From the IMG/VR virus record IMGVR_UViG_3300029494_000008: a stretch of DNA of 44,054 nt. One strand, 5' to 3'. Shown in pieces: positions 1 through 44,054 of this stretch. The stretch is from a virus. Every line of letters starts with the position of its first letter. Positions within the stretch are counted from its first letter, which is position 1. Both the position numbers and the translations under genes were made by a program. Below the pieces are notes generated by a model, which saw nothing but the letters and a program-made list of their open reading frames with translations, was not told the origin of the DNA and did no database searches.

Positions 1-123
1 CGACAGTATCACCCACACGGTGGGCGGAGGATACACCATGGAAATGGAACTGTCCCTGGTGGAGGCCATGACCGAGGAAGTGATCAAGGACGCCACGGAG
101 CGCCTGGCGGCGGTGGGCGTCAT
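1..123. repeat. Terminal direct repeat copy 1. It is identical to 43932-44054 and marks either a circular-assembly overlap or true terminal redundancy.
   Basis: Base-by-base comparison shows 'cgacagtatcacccacacgg...gcggtgggcgtcat' at both window ends. The offset is 43,931. Confidence 0.95.
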
Positions 124-3639: not shown

Positions 3640-6159
3640 ATGTTTTACGGATTTGTAATCACCGAGGCAGGAAACAGCCTGCTGGCCAGCATGGTGGCGG
3701 GCCAAACCCTGACCATCACAAAGGCGGTCGTGGGCGAGGGCACCGCAGACAACGCGGAGGCCGCCAGGAAGTTGACAAACCTGATCACCCCGGGGCCGGA
3801 GGCCACCAGCACCGAGCCGACGGTGGACGGGAACAACGTCAACATGATCGTGGAGTATCGGTCCGACCTGAACGGCGGCCTGCAGGAAGGGTTCTGGATC
3901 GGTGAATTTGGCATTTTCGGCAAGGTGGGGAACGGCGCGGAAACCATGATCGGGTACGGTTCCCTGGGCGACGCCAAGCAGTACGTGAGCGCCTACGTGG
4001 CCGGGGCCGCCCCGGACGTGCGCCGGTATCCCGTTTCCATCACCGTTACCACCGGGATCCAGGTTGACGTGGCATACCCGGCGGAGGCGTGGATGACCGC
4101 CGAGGACGTGGCGGAATACTTCAACCAGACATTGAAACCCGACCTGGAGGAGAGCCTGCAGGACCTGATCGACGACCACAACGAGGACCCGGACGCCCAC
4201 GGCGGCGCCCTGGAGGGCAAGCAGGACCAGATCAAGGCGGAGGGGATCCTGAAAGGGACCAAGACCACCACCGAGGAGGGCGACACGTACAGCGTGGGCG
4301 CGGCCACGCCTGGCACCGACTACCAGGCCCCCACCAACGCCCTGACAGCGGCGGCGGCCATGACCACCCAGGACCTGATCCCCTTCTATGACGTGGCGAC
4401 CGGCCAGCACAAGCGGACCACCCTGCAGGCGCTGAAAGAGGCCATCGGAGTGCAAAGCCCGGCCATCAACGTGACCACCTGCGCGGGGGCCTCCGTGACC
4501 TGTTCGGACGGCGTGACCACCCTGGAGGGCACCGGGTCAACGGAGTTTGAACTGCCAAACGTCGGAAACTGGACCGTGACCGCCACCCTGGACGGGGAGA
4601 GCGTGTCCGAGGTGGTGGAGGTGAGCGGCGCCCTGCTGTATGAGGTGGACCTGATGATCACGAGCGGGATCGCCGTGACGGCACAGCCGGACAAGACCAC
4701 CTATTTCATCGGGGAGGAGTTCGACCCGGAGGGCATGGTGGTAACGGCCACCTTTGCCGACGACACCACCGCAGACGTGACCGAGGACTGCACCTTCTCC
4801 CCGGAAACCATGGCGGCGGGCACCCAATCCGTGACCATTACATACGTCCGGGCGGGCGTCACCAAGACCGCCACGGTGGCGGTGGCGGTGCGGACCCTGG
4901 ACCATATCGCCGTGACCACGCCGCCCAATAAGACGGCCTACAAGTACGGGGAAACCTTCCAGCCGGCGGGCATGGTGGTGACGGCCTACTACACCGACGA
5001 AACCAGCCGGACGGTGACGGGGTACACCTACTCCCCCACCGGCGCCCTGGACATGGACGACACCACGATCACCGTTTCCTACACGGAGGGGAGCGTGAGC
5101 AAGCAGACCACCCAGGCCATCACCGTGGCCAAGGTGCTGGAGAGTATCGAGATCACCACGCCCCCCAACAAAACCGCCTATTTCTCCGGGGAAACCTTCA
5201 ACCCGGCGGGCATGGTGGTGACGGCCCACTACAACGACGGGAGCAGCGCGGCGGTGACGGGGTACACCTACTCCCCCACCGGCGCCCTGGCCACGGGCAA
5301 CACCACGATCACCGTTTCCTATGCGGAGGGCGGCGTGACCAAGACGGACACCCAGGCCATCACCGTGACCGCGATCTCCAACACCCTGAACAGCAATTCC
5401 TGGGCCACCATCAAGGCCGTTTCGGACGCCGGGCAGGGCGCAAACTACTGGGACGTAGGCGACACCAAGCAGATCACGATCAACGGACAGGTGGGAAATA
5501 CGAACATTTCCAACCTGGCGATCAACGTGTTTATTATCGGGTTCAACCACAACGCCAGCCGGGAGGGTTCCAACCGGATCCACTTCAAGATCGGCAAAAT
5601 CGGCAGCACCCAGGTGGGCCTCTGTGATAACCAGTATAGCAATTACCAGAGCGGAAACGGGTATTTCAACATGAACCCGAACAACAGCAACAGCGGCGGG
5701 TGGGCCAACTGCCACATGAGAAAGACGATCCTGGGATCCGACGCAAGCCCCACCAGCCCACGGGCAAACACCCTGCTGGCGGCCCTGCCGGCGGACCTCC
5801 GGGCCGTTATGAAACCGATCACCAAGTATTCGGACAACACCGGCGGCGGCAACAATACGGCCAGTTACGTGACCAGCACCACGGACTACCTGCCCCTGCT
5901 TTCGGAGTTCGAGTACCACGGCGCCCGGACCTATGCCAACAGCGCGGAGCAGAACTTCCAGCAGCAGTACGCCTATTATCAGGCGGGCAACAGCAAGGTG
6001 CATTACAAGCACAACGCCACCGGCACGGCGGCCTTTGCGTGGTGCCGGTCCGTCATTGCGACGAACACGAACGGTTTCTGCCGTGTCAACACCAACGGCA
6101 ACGCCAACAGCAGCGACGCGTACTATTCCTGGGCCGTGGCCGCCGGCTTTGCGGCCTAA
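3640..6159 (+). CDS. Tail fibre / receptor-binding protein and DGR target. It has three Ig-like repeats and a C-terminal variable region.
   Basis: 839 aa with SD 'aggagg' upstream. The three 80-aa repeats follow the pattern 'xPxKTxYxxGExFxPxGMVVTAxY...'. The last 126 nt before the stop pair with the template repeat at 6762-6887. Confidence 0.85.
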   Translation: MFYGFVITEAGNSLLASMVAGQTLTITKAVVGEGTADNAEAARKLTNLITPGPEATSTEPTVDGNNVNMIVEYRSDLNGGLQEGFWIGEFGIFGKVGNGAETMIGYGSLGDAKQYVSAYVAGAAPDVRRYPVSITVTTGIQVDVAYPAEAWMTAEDVAEYFNQTLKPDLEESLQDLIDDHNEDPDAHGGALEGKQDQIKAEGILKGTKTTTEEGDTYSVGAATPGTDYQAPTNALTAAAAMTTQDLIPFYDVATGQHKRTTLQALKEAIGVQSPAINVTTCAGASVTCSDGVTTLEGTGSTEFELPNVGNWTVTATLDGESVSEVVEVSGALLYEVDLMITSGIAVTAQPDKTTYFIGEEFDPEGMVVTATFADDTTADVTEDCTFSPETMAAGTQSVTITYVRAGVTKTATVAVAVRTLDHIAVTTPPNKTAYKYGETFQPAGMVVTAYYTDETSRTVTGYTYSPTGALDMDDTTITVSYTEGSVSKQTTQAITVAKVLESIEITTPPNKTAYFSGETFNPAGMVVTAHYNDGSSAAVTGYTYSPTGALATGNTTITVSYAEGGVTKTDTQAITVTAISNTLNSNSWATIKAVSDAGQGANYWDVGDTKQITINGQVGNTNISNLAINVFIIGFNHNASREGSNRIHFKIGKIGSTQVGLCDNQYSNYQSGNGYFNMNPNNSNSGGWANCHMRKTILGSDASPTSPRANTLLAALPADLRAVMKPITKYSDNTGGGNNTASYVTSTTDYLPLLSEFEYHGARTYANSAEQNFQQQYAYYQAGNSKVHYKHNATGTAAFAWCRSVIATNTNGFCRVNTNGNANSSDAYYSWAVAAGFAA
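4657..5376 (+). repeat. Three tandem 240-bp in-frame coding repeats (4657-4896, 4897-5136, 5137-5376) encoding bacterial Ig-like (Big_3-like) domains.
   Basis: Repeats 2 and 3 share long identical strings, for example 'ccggcgggcatggtggtgacggcc' and 'gtgacggggtacacctactcccccaccggcgccctgg'. Confidence 0.85.
6025..6150 (+). repeat. DGR variable repeat (VR) at the 3' end of the tail fibre gene.
   Basis: It aligns without gaps to 6762-6887. There are 12 differences, and 11 of them fall at template adenines. Confidence 0.9.
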
Positions 6160-6181
6160 TCCGGCGGAGCAATCGGGGAAA

Positions 6182-6761: not shown

Positions 6762-6887
6762 ACGGCGGCCAATGCGTGGTGCCGGTCCGTCAATGCGACG
6801 AACACGAACAATTTCTGCCTTGTCAACACCAACGGCAACGCCAACAACAACAACGCGAACAATTCCTGGGCCGTGGCCGCCGGATTT
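6762..6887 (+). repeat. DGR template repeat (TR).
   Basis: 126 nt with 33 adenines by hand count. There are 14 AAY codons in the VR-equivalent frame. It ends in an adenine-free 20-mer 'tcctgggccgtggccgccgg' that is shared with VR. Confidence 0.9.
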
Positions 6888-7112
6888 CACAACCCCGCGA
6901 GGGGAACGGGTCAAATGCAGTAGGAAACGAACCGGACCCTTTGTGAAAGGAGAGATACTGCCCGGGCCAAAAACCCGAAACCGCACTCTGTGGCCACTTC
7001 ACGGACGCTGCTTGCATGGCGGGCCTATTGTGCTAACCCCGTTTCATGTGAAGGGGCTACGCGTTTAGCCGCACACCTACACCACAACCGCACGGAGGCG
7101 CGAAAAAAATAT
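6888..7112 (+). ncRNA. TR-to-RT spacer, the probable non-coding 3' part of the DGR RNA.
   Basis: It lies between the TR end and the RT start codon. It has no convincing CDS and contains small GC stems, for example 'cccc gcga gggg' at 6893-6904. Confidence 0.4.
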
Positions 7113-8240
7113 ATGACCAGTGAGGAGCGCCGGGAGGCGCGATACCATAGACGACAGGCCGCCCGGGAGGCGCGGCGAAGGAAACGCAGCGAGGACCTGG
7201 GCGGGATCGCCCAGGCGTTCAGTTTCCGAAAAATGTTCAAATGGGGAAAGAAGTGCTGTAACAATGTCCGGTGGAAACAATCCACGCAGAATTTTGAACG
7301 GCACCTGTTTTCCGGCACGGCCCGCAGGCGGCGGGAAGTTTTATCCGGGAAGTGGCGGCCAAAGCCGGGCGCCCATTTCCTTCTCCGGGAGCGGGGCAAA
7401 ATCCGGCCCATAGACGCCCCGCACATCAACGACCGGCAGATCCACAAAACCCTGACCAAGGAGGTGCTGGAGCCGCTATACACGCCGGGCATGATCCGGC
7501 GGAACGGCGCCAGCCAAAAGGGAAAGGGACTGTCCTTCCACCATGAGGAACTGAAACGGATCCTGCGGGAGCATTTCAGAAAACACGGCCGGGAGGGTTA
7601 CGTGGTCCTTATGGACCTAAAGCAGTTCTTTCCCTCCGCGCCCCATGCGGCAATCTACGAGCGCCACCGGCGCCTGATCCTGGACCCGGAGATCCGGGCG
7701 GTGGCGGACACGGTGGTGGCCGCTGTGCCGGGCGGCGTGGGTATGCCCCTGGGCGTGGAGCCGTCGCAGATGGAAATGGTGTCCCTGCCGTCCGCCGTGG
7801 ACAACTGGATCGCCTGCCAACTGCGGGCGGAGGATCCGGCCCACTATATGGACGACTACCACATGATCGCGGAAACCAAGGAGCAGGCGGAGGCGTTCCG
7901 GGACGCCGTGACCGAGCGCATGGAGGCCATGGGGCTGACCGTGAGCCGGAGAAAAACCAAGATCGTGCCGCTGTCCAAACCCTTCCGGTTCTGCAAGGTA
8001 AAATTCCAACTGAAACCCACCGGGAGAGTGATCACCCACGGGAACCGGGACGGGATGAAACGGGCGCGGCGGAAACTGCGGGCGTTCAAGGCCAAGGTGG
8101 ACGCCGGGGAAATGACCGTCCAGCAGGTGCGGGCGTGGCTGACCAGCCAGATCGCCTATTTCGAGAACTACAACGACCACGGCCGGGTCCTCCGGCTGAA
8201 CCGGATATTTCATGCAATTTACGGAGGTGCAGAACCATGA
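7113..8240 (+). CDS. DGR reverse transcriptase.
   Basis: Motifs seen are 'LMDLKQFFPS', 'PLGVEPSQ' (the LGxxxSQ signature of DGR RTs) and 'YMDDYHMIA' (YxDD). I chose the ATG at 7113 with 'ggagg' upstream. The track start at 6990 is probably an artefactual extension. Confidence 0.9.
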   Translation: MTSEERREARYHRRQAAREARRRKRSEDLGGIAQAFSFRKMFKWGKKCCNNVRWKQSTQNFERHLFSGTARRRREVLSGKWRPKPGAHFLLRERGKIRPIDAPHINDRQIHKTLTKEVLEPLYTPGMIRRNGASQKGKGLSFHHEELKRILREHFRKHGREGYVVLMDLKQFFPSAPHAAIYERHRRLILDPEIRAVADTVVAAVPGGVGMPLGVEPSQMEMVSLPSAVDNWIACQLRAEDPAHYMDDYHMIAETKEQAEAFRDAVTERMEAMGLTVSRRKTKIVPLSKPFRFCKVKFQLKPTGRVITHGNRDGMKRARRKLRAFKAKVDAGEMTVQQVRAWLTSQIAYFENYNDHGRVLRLNRIFHAIYGGAEP

Positions 8241-9939: not shown

Positions 9940-10335
9940 ATGAATATGCCTTTGATCGCGGCGGCCGCCATGGCCGGCGGGGCGCTGCTGGGCTTTTCCT
10001 TGTGCTGGGCCGCCACAAGGCTGGCCGGCGGAAACCACGCAGCGGCCGCACGGCTGGCCACCGCCGCAAAGAAGAAAATGGGGACCATGGACAAGGTGCT
10101 GATCCTGGAGGGCGTGATCCTGGTGGCCTATACGGCGGCGGACCTGGCCGTGTTCTGGCACACCGGGAACGAGCCTGCCACCCTGACCGCCTGCGTGTTC
10201 GGCGTGTGCGGTTTTGAAAACGGGGTCATGGGATGGATCAAGACCACAAAGGAAAAGGTGCGGGACCGGCGCTGGGAACAGGAGGACCGGGAGCGCATGA
10301 GGAAAGAAGAACAGGAGGCGCAAAACAATGGGTAA
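9940..10335 (+). CDS. Holin-like membrane protein.
   Basis: 131 aa with about three hydrophobic segments and a highly charged C-terminus. Its stop overlaps the endolysin start. Confidence 0.55.
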   Translation: MNMPLIAAAAMAGGALLGFSLCWAATRLAGGNHAAAARLATAAKKKMGTMDKVLILEGVILVAYTAADLAVFWHTGNEPATLTACVFGVCGFENGVMGWIKTTKEKVRDRRWEQEDRERMRKEEQEAQNNG

Positions 10336-11374
10336 AATGAAAGCCAATGTATTCGTGGAAAAGGCGGTGGAGATCGCCAAGAACTTCAAAACCCTGTACG
10401 TTATGGGCTGTTTCGGGGCACCGCTGACGGGTTCCAACGTGAGCCGCTACTGCAATAACCATTCATACAACCGGGCGGCAGACCGCACGGCCATGATCAA
10501 GGCGGCGGGAAACCAAAACCCGCCCGTATATGGCTTTGACTGCGTGTGCCTGATCAAGGGCATTTTGTGGGGGTGGAGCGGGAACACCTCCAAGACCTAC
10601 GGCGGAGCCAATTATGCCAGCAACGGGGTCCCGGACATAGGGGCGGACACCATGATCACCAGGTGCCTGGACGTTTCCACAACCGGATGGGCCAACATGG
10701 CCGTGGGTGAAGCGGTGTGGATGTCCGGCCATATCGGAATTTACATCGGGGACGGCCTGGCGGTGGAGTGTTCCCCAAAGTGGGAAAACAAGGTGCAGAT
10801 CACGGCCGTGGGGAACATCGGGAGCAAAGCGGGGTACAACACGCGGACCTGGACCAAACACGGAAAACTGCCCTATGTGGATTACTCCGAGAGCGGGACG
10901 ACCACCGGCGGCGGGACCGCGACAAAGCCGGACACCGGCGGCGCCACCATCTACAAGGTAGCGGCCGGGGACAACCTCTCCAAGATCGCGGCCAAGTATG
11001 GCACCACCGTGGACGCCCTGGCGGAGATCAACGCCATCCAAAACAAGAACCTGATCCGCGTGGGCCAGGTGCTTATGCTCCAGGATACACCCCAGGCGGC
11101 GGCCGACAAACTGGAGGCCCTGGGCGTGATCAACTCCCCGGACTACTGGGCGGAGGCGGCGGAGGCCGGAAAGGTCCAATACCTGGACATTCTGCTGAAA
11201 AAGGCCGCGCAGACCATCACAAAGGCCGGGGTGCGGACGGATACGCCCCAGGAGGGCGTGGCCGCGCTGGTGGCCGCCGGCGTGATCAATACGCCGGAAT
11301 ACTGGCTGGCCAACTATGGCACATTCCCCAGCCTGGACCTGCTGCTGCAGGCGCTGGGCGGGGCTGTGAAATAA
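10328..11374 (+). CDS. Endolysin: NlpC/P60-like cysteine peptidase, LysM, and two C-terminal 'GVINxP(D/E)YW' repeats.
   Basis: 'FDCVCLIKG...GHIGIYIGDG...ECS' is a Cys-His peptidase pattern. 'YKVAAGDNLSKIAAKYGTTVDALAEINAI' is a LysM motif. SD 'aggagg' lies 9 nt upstream. Confidence 0.8.
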   Translation: MGKMKANVFVEKAVEIAKNFKTLYVMGCFGAPLTGSNVSRYCNNHSYNRAADRTAMIKAAGNQNPPVYGFDCVCLIKGILWGWSGNTSKTYGGANYASNGVPDIGADTMITRCLDVSTTGWANMAVGEAVWMSGHIGIYIGDGLAVECSPKWENKVQITAVGNIGSKAGYNTRTWTKHGKLPYVDYSESGTTTGGGTATKPDTGGATIYKVAAGDNLSKIAAKYGTTVDALAEINAIQNKNLIRVGQVLMLQDTPQAAADKLEALGVINSPDYWAEAAEAGKVQYLDILLKKAAQTITKAGVRTDTPQEGVAALVAAGVINTPEYWLANYGTFPSLDLLLQALGGAVK

Positions 11375-43012: not shown

Positions 43013-44054
43013 GGACACGGAGAGCGGAAACGGATCTGACCTGGAACGGCGCGGCCGTCACCAGCAAAATGGTGGGCTACAAGGCCACCGTGACCTATAC
43101 GGACGCGGCCAGCGGCGAGGCGGACAGCCTGGAGATCAGCATGAACGACCGGGACCGCCAATGGACCACGGCGTGGATGCCGAAAACCGGGGACACCCTG
43201 ACGGCCGCCATTAAGGTGTACGACTGGGAGCGGGAGGGCGACAACCGGACACTGGACTGCGGATTTTTCATCCTGGACAATTACAGTTTTTCGTGGTGGC
43301 CCATGACCGGGACCATTTCGGCCGTGTCGGTGCCGGCGGATAGCGCTTTCCGGGCGACGCAGCGGACCAAGACCTGGGAAAAGGCCACCCTGCAGGCCAT
43401 AGGAAACGAGATCGCGGCCAGGGCGGGCATTACCCTGACCTGGGACGTGGAGGGGGAACCCATTACCGTCGAAAGCGTGGAGCAATCCGAGCAAACGGAC
43501 TGCGAGTTTTATATGAGCCTGTGCGAGGAATACGGCCTTTCCATGAAGGTGTACGCCCAAAAAATCGTGGTGTACGACCGGGAGCAGTACAAGGAGCGGG
43601 ACGTGGCGGGCACCATCCGGGAAAGCGAGATCGAAAGCGGTTCCTGGAATACCACCCTTGACGGGACCTATACCGGCGGGGAATACACCTACACGGACCC
43701 GAATACCGAGGAGGAGATCAAGGTCACGGTGGGGACGGGAACCCGGATCCTGAAACAATCCGGCAAGGCCGACAACAAGGCCGACGCGGAGCGCAAGATC
43801 ACGGCGGCGGTGGCCAACGCCAACCACGGCGCCACCACCCTGTCCCTGACCATCATGGGGCGGCCGGACCTGGTGGCCAGCCAGTGCGTCACCGTGGTGG
43901 GGATCGGCCGCCTCTCCGGCAAGTATTTTATCGACAGTATCACCCACACGGTGGGCGGAGGATACACCATGGAAATGGAACTGTCCCTGGTGGAGGCCAT
44001 GACCGAGGAAGTGATCAAGGACGCCACGGAGCGCCTGGCGGCGGTGGGCGTCAT
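43009..44054 (+). CDS. gpD-like baseplate hub protein (late control D / XkdQ-like). This is the 5' part. It continues past the window end and finishes at position 370.
   Basis: The ATG at 43009 overlaps the gpX stop. The frame stays open to the window end. Hand translation gives MRTRRAETDLTWNGAAVTSKMVGYKATVTYTDAASGEADSLEISMNDRDRQW..., a gpD-like pattern. Confidence 0.75.
   Translation, partial: MRTRRAETDLTWNGAAVTSKMVGYKATVTYTDAASGEADSLEISMNDRDRQWTTAWMPKTGDTLTAAIKVYDWEREGDNRTLDCGFFILDNYSFSWWPMTGTISAVSVPADSAFRATQRTKTWEKATLQAIGNEIAARAGITLTWDVEGEPITVESVEQSEQTDCEFYMSLCEEYGLSMKVYAQKIVVYDREQYKERDVAGTIRESEIESGSWNTTLDGTYTGGEYTYTDPNTEEEIKVTVGTGTRILKQSGKADNKADAERKITAAVANANHGATTLSLTIMGRPDLVASQCVTVVGIGRLSGKYFIDSITHTVGGGYTMEMELSLVEAMTEEVIKDATERLAAVGV
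43932..44054. repeat. Terminal direct repeat copy 2, identical to 1-123.
   Basis: Same 123-nt string as the window start. Confidence 0.95.

Follow-up and report, generated by a model that had tools for sequence, protein, structure and literature searches.

The virus record IMGVR_UViG_3300029494_000008 from IMG/VR is a stretch of 44,054 nucleotides (nt), referred to here as the window, that carries a diversity-generating retroelement (DGR) directly 3′ of its baseplate genes (Baseplate_J, Tail_P2_I). Judged from its sequence, the cassette is a complete DGR of ordinary architecture, with a tail-fibre target gene, an Avd-like accessory gene, a template region (TR), an RT-2 RNA and a reverse transcriptase (RT) following one another on the same strand (Table 1). 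The predicted variable region (VR) takes up the final 42 codons of the target gene. What is new for a DGR at this locus is not the architecture but the behaviour of a single non-adenine site. Contrary to the criterion that DGRs vary at template adenines only, 21 of the 66 distinct VRs of this locus family carry a G opposite one particular template T (VR 6083, TR 6820). This is a departure in behaviour, and the assignment of the element as a DGR is not in doubt.

Table 1. The DGR cassette of the window, listed in order of position
Feature	Position	Strand	Remarks and evidence
DGR target gene, 839-aa tail-fibre protein	3640..6159	+	Open reading frame; Pfam; PHROG; homologues
Variable region (VR)	6025..6150	+	Truly varying positions lie within 6034-6125
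Inverted repeat TGCCGT (6079-6084) / ACGGCA (6095-6100)	6079..6100	+	Perfect in the VR; relevance speculative
Recurrent non-adenine site	6083	+	Codon 6082-6084 is CGT (Arg815), against CTT (Leu) in the TR
G+C-rich 16-nt block at the 3′ end of the VR, GGGCCGTGGCCGCCGG	6131..6146	+	Identical to TR 6868-6883
3′ boundary resembling an initiation of mutagenic homing (IMH) site	6147..6160	+	6147 is C against A in the TR; VR and TR diverge beyond 6150
Perfect 11-bp hairpin 3′ of the VR, GGAA loop	6182..6207	+	No T-run follows; fold; conservation
Avd-like accessory gene, 152 aa	6241..6699	+	phrog_30516; predicted fold
Template region (TR)	6762..6887	+	33 adenines; the recurrent change lies opposite T at 6820
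Stem-loop CCCC-GCGA-GGGG, 4-bp stem	6893..6904	+	6 nt after the TR, in the position of the Avd-binding stem-loop
Rfam RT-2 RNA (RF03077)	6906..7121	+	125.6 bits against a gathering score of 40; full model 1-222
DGR reverse transcriptase, 375 aa	7113..8240	+	ATG at 7113, GGAGG at 7094

Within the window, VR and TR align without gaps at a constant offset of 737, homology stops sharply at both ends of the repeat, and no other such repeat pair is present. A recount reproduces the 12 mismatches of the original prediction, 11 of them opposite TR adenines (VR 6034, 6035, 6056, 6073, 6074, 6110, 6113, 6115, 6121, 6124 and 6147) and one a T>G change (VR 6083 opposite TR 6820), and it bears out the earlier hand count of 33 adenines and 14 in-frame AAY codons in the TR, 8 of which are altered in the VR. 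Against a TR composition of 33 A, 41 C, 32 G and 20 T, mismatches fall at 11 of the 33 adenines and at 1 of the 93 other positions (Fisher one-sided p = 9e-7), so that the adenine enrichment that had been proposed as a check is present and the mismatches are not spread over all four template bases. A lone non-adenine mismatch, which had been called unusual, is in itself commonplace. Two surveys put the share of DGRs with such mismatches at 23% (Wu et al. 2018, PMC5758913) and that of TR-VR pairs at 46%, with T mostly changed to C (Yan et al. 2019, PMC6642488), and leave them unexplained as RT error, integration or independent mutation. The unusual part is the recurrence of the T>G change, not the existence of one non-adenine mismatch.

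The recurrence becomes visible in a comparative set of related loci drawn from GenBank phages, IMG/VR, metagenome contigs and GTDB genomes, from which every gapless in-register TR/VR pair was taken. This gave 66 distinct pairs with 36 distinct TR alleles, a first set having comprised 45 distinct pairs. G at the focal site of the VR (32% of pairs) is invariably the result of T>G, by CTT>CGT in 20 cases and CTA>CGA in one, and its frequency lies inside the range of genuine adenine sites, each of which is changed in 9-69% of VRs. The focal codon sits in the motif FC[L/R]V. Of 152 distinct VR peptides, taken from the loci and from the protein database, 85 have Leu at this codon, 58 have Arg and 9 have something else. 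On the template side, index 58 (TR 6820, counting TR 6762 as index 0) is T in all 79 TR copies and in 36 of 36 alleles. An IMG/VR scan for the TR context returned 42 contigs with T and none with G, and the 15-mer that carries G occurs in the window only in the VR, with no second copy. Because T is invariant among TRs, it is the ancestral base and the change lies on the VR side, which answers the question of ancestry that the original prediction had referred to related phages. The adjoining T at index 59 is four-fold degenerate, and thus neutral, and is changed in 0 of 45 pairs.

The G or T state of the VR is essentially without phylogenetic inertia. When the flanks (avd, RT-2 RNA and RT) are arranged in a neighbour-joining tree, it takes 12 Fitch steps, compared with 13.4 ± 1.4 for shuffled tips (P = 0.25), and the G has arisen independently at least 12 times. 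Two pairs of loci, L016 (G) with L018 (T) and L009 (T) with L058 (G), are discordant in spite of avd and RT flanks that differ at about 1 in 1,900 nt (0.05%). Apart from the G, each G-state VR agrees with the TR of its own lineage wherever the template base is not adenine, and adenine sites both 5′ and 3′ of the G set it apart from the VRs of its closest relatives, which indicates that full-length conversion tracts have passed over the focal site. The reconstituted DGR of BPP-1 passes on the non-adenine markers of its TR with 100% efficiency (PMC12875486), and by analogy a G in the VR should be erased at each homing and would have to be re-created. The recurrence of the T>G change and its direction are almost certainly real.

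The element is, on the strength of these comparisons, active in nature, since VRs differ between near-identical phages while TRs are conserved. Adenine sites are changed in 876 of 1941 instances (45%) over the 66 pairs, and phages whose avd and RT flanks are only 0.05-0.4% apart carry entirely different VRs. At template adenines, once the fixed site at the 3′ boundary of the VR (see below) is removed, the outcomes are 277 A>G, 204 A>T and 101 A>C; the A at the first position of the repeat (TR 6762) never varies. Changes at non-adenine positions fall into two classes. In the first (indices 13, 66, 74, 76, 95, 107, 112, 117 and others) the VR base is the TR allele of a sister phage, as in L005, L109, L065, L171 and other loci that carry a sister allele rather than their own at indices such as 74, 76 and 117, and such bases reflect recombination between related phages, with VR and TR only 0.7 kb apart, or recent turnover or replacement of the TR. 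The second class consists of 26 changes to a base never seen in any TR, of which 25 are T>G and one is C>T. With the focal site excluded, T>G still makes up 4 of the 5 de novo changes, against a composition-based expectation of 7.7% (p = 1.6e-4). The predominance of T>G, together with dC being the commonest base inserted opposite A (A>G), points to reverse transcription rather than replication error as the source.

Sister DGRs place the focal position on the diversified surface of the target, as their homologous TR codon is AAT, ATT or ACC. In the AAT-type family the residue at this position spreads over 12 amino acids, with Arg in 3 of 44 and Leu in 2 of 44 VRs, which indicates that the site is tolerant and that Arg is not specially favoured. 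No coupling of Leu or Arg to other VR residues survives multiple testing among 143 VR peptides. In five sister DGRs with RT identities of 56-59% (L020, L021, L116, L117 and L128), a TR ATT codon is GTT in the VR in 5 of 5 cases (Ile>Val, by A>G), in VRs that are possibly non-independent. Two other origins of the G were considered and rejected. Adenine mutagenesis on the antisense or second strand is ruled out because neither the synonymous T at index 59 nor the T that ends each AAT codon varies and because G is the only outcome. Dislocation or slippage on neighbouring template bases is ruled out because those neighbours would template G or A, not C.

Several observations touch on the focal site or its template without belonging to the main series. 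The VR of a more distant DGR, L099 (PXZU01000626.1), has two further T>G changes, each in an AAT codon in which the neighbouring A has become G, and the same adjacency of T>G and a mutated A is seen in L028, L108 and L202, which hints that misreading of U may be coupled to misincorporation at adjoining adenines. In the TRs whose focal codon is CTA (L006, L007, L040, L044, L045, L061 and L097), the third-position A is synonymous and ought to vary freely, yet it is unchanged in 7 of 7 distinct VRs, for an expectation of about 0.55^7 = 1.5%. Copying right beside the T>G site may be of unusual fidelity in this sub-family. A degenerate-pattern scan of IMG/VR for more CTA-type TR/VR pairs was too unspecific and found only two CTA-type contigs, both already in the set. 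Finally, non-adenine codons in the 3′ half of the TR copy of L030 (UMEA01040056.1) resemble those of a VR (YTDGDAYSGYANG); this copy is probably an assembly chimera of TR and VR reads, and possibly a product of VR-to-TR conversion.

The reading favoured here, to which a probability of about 60% is given, is that the G at VR 6083 was made by the RT during retrohoming. The TR would be transcribed jointly with the downstream RT-2 RNA, and the RT, probably with the Avd-like protein, would copy it into complementary DNA (cDNA) with random misincorporation opposite adenines. The cDNA would then replace the last 42 codons of the tail-fibre gene, its entry being directed by the G+C-rich end, the IMH-like boundary with its fixed C at 6147, and the downstream hairpin. 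On this account the T>G at 6083 would go back to the very retrohoming event that produced the present VR, in which dC was placed opposite the uridine at TR 6820. The G would persist because codon 815 is tolerant and presumably faces the ligand, with both Leu and Arg functioning there. Across the phage family, the uridine at TR 6820 behaves like one more variable site, with Leu and Arg as its two outcomes.

A high raw T>G rate at TR 6820 is suggested by the tolerance of the position in sister DGRs, the lack of epistasis and the strict retention of T in the TR. An intrinsic hot spot, that is, a programmed non-adenine site at which dC enters tens of percent of cDNAs, is accordingly put forward only tentatively and at somewhat less than even odds; it would build a switch between Leu and Arg into a codon from which the adenines have been lost. 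The alternative to such a hot spot is an ordinary error of about 1% that is amplified by selection. One conceivable basis for programmed insertion of dC is a one-base templated switch on the quasi-palindrome TGCCTT/ACGGCA of the TR. The TR arms (6816-6821 and 6832-6837) have one mismatch, T6820 against C6833, and T>G perfects the repeat. The corrected arm is the one copied second in minus-strand synthesis, as a templated switch predicts. Both arms are conserved in 29 of 36 TR alleles, which is too little variation to relate the frequency of G to the arms. The TR RNA has no significant overall structure (z = +1.97), and only the short local hairpin around the focal site appears in its centroid fold. 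Quasi-palindrome mutagenesis by template switching is a source of mutational hot spots in bacteria, and the present case resembles it in that the T>G change perfects an imperfect inverted repeat. It differs in that only one base pair precedes the mismatch and in a probability of coincidence of about 7%.

A number of points weigh against an origin of the G in reverse transcription, or against particular parts of that account. rU:dC is a poor mispair. At other tolerant T sites, namely the last base of AAT codons and the synonymous index 59, T>G is found in about 0.3-0.9% of VRs, a level similar to the baseline of bRT-Avd at U. The 32% at the focal site therefore calls for a hot spot of 35-100-fold or for selection of equal strength, two possibilities that the comparative data do not tell apart. 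The change is non-synonymous, and selection is therefore always a confounder. The gain in palindrome brought by T>G ranks only in the top 7% of 279 possible non-adenine substitutions. Recurrence, direction, base specificity, independence from phylogeny and the T>G signature can be read directly from the pairs, and it is by comparison of finished VRs and TRs that the step at which the G arises would be placed. bRT-Avd, the only DGR RT that has been measured, misincorporates opposite U at a baseline of about 0.5% (PMC7826257).

The rival explanation that carries the most weight, unlikely as it is, leaves the RT out altogether and invokes convergent selection on replication errors, with homing resetting the codon to CTT and a spontaneous T>G being selected anew because Arg815 would improve binding to some host receptors. 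Being non-synonymous, and located where sister families are DGR-variable, the change is open to selection; no Arg codon other than CGT can be reached from CTT in one step, which would account for G alone being seen; and phage populations are big enough to supply any single mutation. Yet A:T>C:G is among the rarest spontaneous substitutions, and T>G also makes up 4 of the 5 other de novo non-adenine changes. Phe, Ile and Val, which are one step from CTT and present in sister families, are nearly absent here, Arg is not favoured in the AAT-type family, and there is no strong coupling of Leu or Arg to other variable residues. A strongly favoured Arg should, moreover, have fixed CGT or CAT in the TR, in which T is invariant among the 36 alleles. 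An improbable alternative is that G is an old VR polymorphism that escapes overwriting, either through patchy conversion tracts or through MutY-like repair of a G.A heteroduplex that restores the G. A G(+).A(-) mismatch is indeed a substrate of MutY, G-state VRs form small clusters (the window with L028 and L030; L039 with L084 and L094), and one clade with six distinct VRs has T throughout. Such inheritance is hard to reconcile with the lack of significant phylogenetic signal and the difference in state between near-identical phages, with the adenine differences that flank the G on both sides in close relatives, and with the complete transfer of markers in BPP-1.

Templating in trans, in which the G would come from another TR allele or by recombination from the VR of a co-infecting relative, is a process that is real elsewhere in the repeat, as the sister alleles at indices 74, 76 and 117 in L005, L109 and other loci illustrate. 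Its application to the focal site is highly improbable, for no G-bearing TR exists among the 36 alleles or in IMG/VR, and the G-state VRs match the TR of their own lineage at every other non-adenine position. The original prediction had suggested a point mutation fixed in the TR or the VR after the last homing event, and for one window alone a single neutral mutation fixed by chance would be the simplest explanation, single non-adenine mismatches being common in the surveyed DGRs. The suggestion holds insofar as the change is on the VR side, but it fails as a one-off event, and in that form may be regarded as already refuted. The TR has T everywhere, the identical change recurs in 21 of 66 distinct VRs from at least 12 origins, and for pairs that diverge at 1 in about 1,900 nt the probability of several coincidences at the same site by chance is about 1e-9.

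The fixed site mentioned above is the C at VR 6147, which stands against A at TR 6884. The same difference, in the context CCGG[A/C]TTT, is present in 45 of 45 pairs of the first set and at every 3′ end inspected, so that it is a fixed difference between TR and VR, and the window contains 10, not 11, true adenine-mutagenesis changes. The count of 11 mismatches at template adenines in the original prediction is thus correct as a count, but not as a count of mutagenesis. By its position, the 6147 difference is the boundary between IMH and IMH*, marking the predicted end of cDNA-derived sequence, and DGR-finding software would miscount it as an adenine substitution. Downstream of this boundary, the hairpin is kept in all relatives, with a compensatory change of C-G to T-A and with GNRA loops. 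It was not scored as a terminator, and it is likely the hairpin or cruciform by which the DGR target is recognized.

The target protein has a match to Big_3 (1.4e-21, three Ig-like repeats) and weak matches to Phage_tail_fib and DUF6273 among Pfam families, and it matches phrog_7037 (tail fibre) and phrog_37900 among PHROG families. Homologues of its C-terminal domain carry PF19789 (DUF6273), and this domain, whose last 42 codons form the VR, is assigned by homology to the DUF6273 family. An AlphaFold model of the C-terminal domain, built from a 47-sequence alignment, was unusable at a predicted local distance difference test score (pLDDT) of 40. The Big_3 domains of the fibre shaft correspond to tandem repeats of 234-240 nt at 4897-5370 of the window that are 83% identical. 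Relatives have 3 or 4 copies, and the number varies between phages.

The accessory protein had no match in Pfam, NCBIfam or the sequences of the PDB. Its AlphaFold model (pLDDT 88) consists of four long helices, for which the best Foldseek match is the four-helix protein 2gsc (TM score 0.8 on the target, E 0.08); bAvd was absent from the top 50 matches. The stem-loop that follows the TR resembles, by analogy, the Avd-binding stem-loop of other DGR RNAs (compare 10.1101/2023.10.23.563531). In relatives its sequence and length vary while pairing and GNRA-type loops are kept, and some relatives have no stem. The RT-2 RNA corresponds to the spacer RNA in transcripts of DGR templates. Its match to RF03077 is full-length, lies directly 5′ of the RT gene and overlaps the start of that gene, with no difference seen from the known family, and it is placed precisely here at 19 nt after a DGR TR. 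The RT frame as called mechanically begins at GTG 6990, and the ATG at 7113 was taken as the start. The protein matches RVT_1 (1.2e-14) and phrog_1423, contains LGVEPSQ at aa 213, which fits the [I/V/L]GxxxSQ signature of DGR RTs, and YMDD at aa 245, and has as its top match among solved structures 8ub7_A, a 328-aa reverse transcriptase (E 1.3e-13).

The two ends of the window (1-123 and 43932-44054) are identical over 123 nt (100% identity), from which it follows that the window is one complete phage genome, to all appearances circularly closed or terminally redundant (circularly permuted), with a unit of 43,931 bp and, over the window, a G+C content of 62%. The phage is predicted to be temperate and tailed, with a host among the Oscillospiraceae of the Flavonifractor type. 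Close relatives among GTDB genomes are prophages of Flavonifractor sp. An100 and of Oscillospiraceae metagenome-assembled genomes, and relatives are frequent among contigs of human-gut metagenomes. Elsewhere in the genome, a 54-nt unit (...GVINSPDYW...) occurs twice in a small open reading frame at 20-370 and twice at the C-terminus of a LysM-containing protein at 10328-11374, spanning 89-298 and 11096-11305. The LysM-containing protein is likely a lysin, and the unit, for which no Pfam family was matched, may be an undescribed cell-wall-binding repeat.

With the prototype DGR of BPP-1 (mtd-avd-TR-brt) the present element shares the order of target, accessory gene, TR and RT, a VR at the 3′ end of a tail-fibre gene, and adenine-specific mutagenesis centred on AAY codons. 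Also common to both are a G+C-rich end followed by IMH-like divergence, a GNRA-capped hairpin after the VR, a structured RNA 3′ of the TR, and an RT with the [I/V/L]GxxxSQ motif. It differs from BPP-1 in that its target is of the DUF6273 type rather than Mtd, in that its accessory protein does not match an Avd model by sequence, and in that one uridine gives T>G in about one third of VRs, compared with an error of about 0.5% at U for bRT-Avd. Closer counterparts are DGRs with DUF6273 targets in prophages of Faecalibacterium and other Oscillospiraceae, namely Roos, Pioen, Lelie and CP11 (PMC11792537), and those with tentaclin-type DUF6273 targets, DUF6273 being described as C-type-lectin-like (PMC10743442). 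Those elements too belong to phages of gut Clostridia and have their VR at the C-terminus of DUF6273. The host differs, being Flavonifractor-like here, and the papers require at least 75% of mismatches to be at A and report no recurrent non-adenine site. The non-adenine substitutions that appear in the DGR surveys are scattered, whereas here they affect one position, always to G, repeatedly and at a frequency like that of an adenine. In the papers searched on non-adenine DGR changes and on DGR RT structure, no recurrent site-specific non-adenine change was found.

The rule that only adenines are diversified underlies the definition, detection and engineering of DGRs, and non-adenine mismatches are usually filtered out or taken as noise. 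If the RT makes the T>G change, template context can open further programmed sites and DGR diversification would not be strictly adenine-limited, with a bearing on the selective infidelity of these enzymes, on DGR-finding software that penalizes non-A mismatches and on tools for DGR mutagenesis. If selection is responsible instead, the locus would offer an unusually clean natural case of convergent evolution of receptor binding at one residue. Under either explanation, the variant site is found across a widespread family of human-gut phages.

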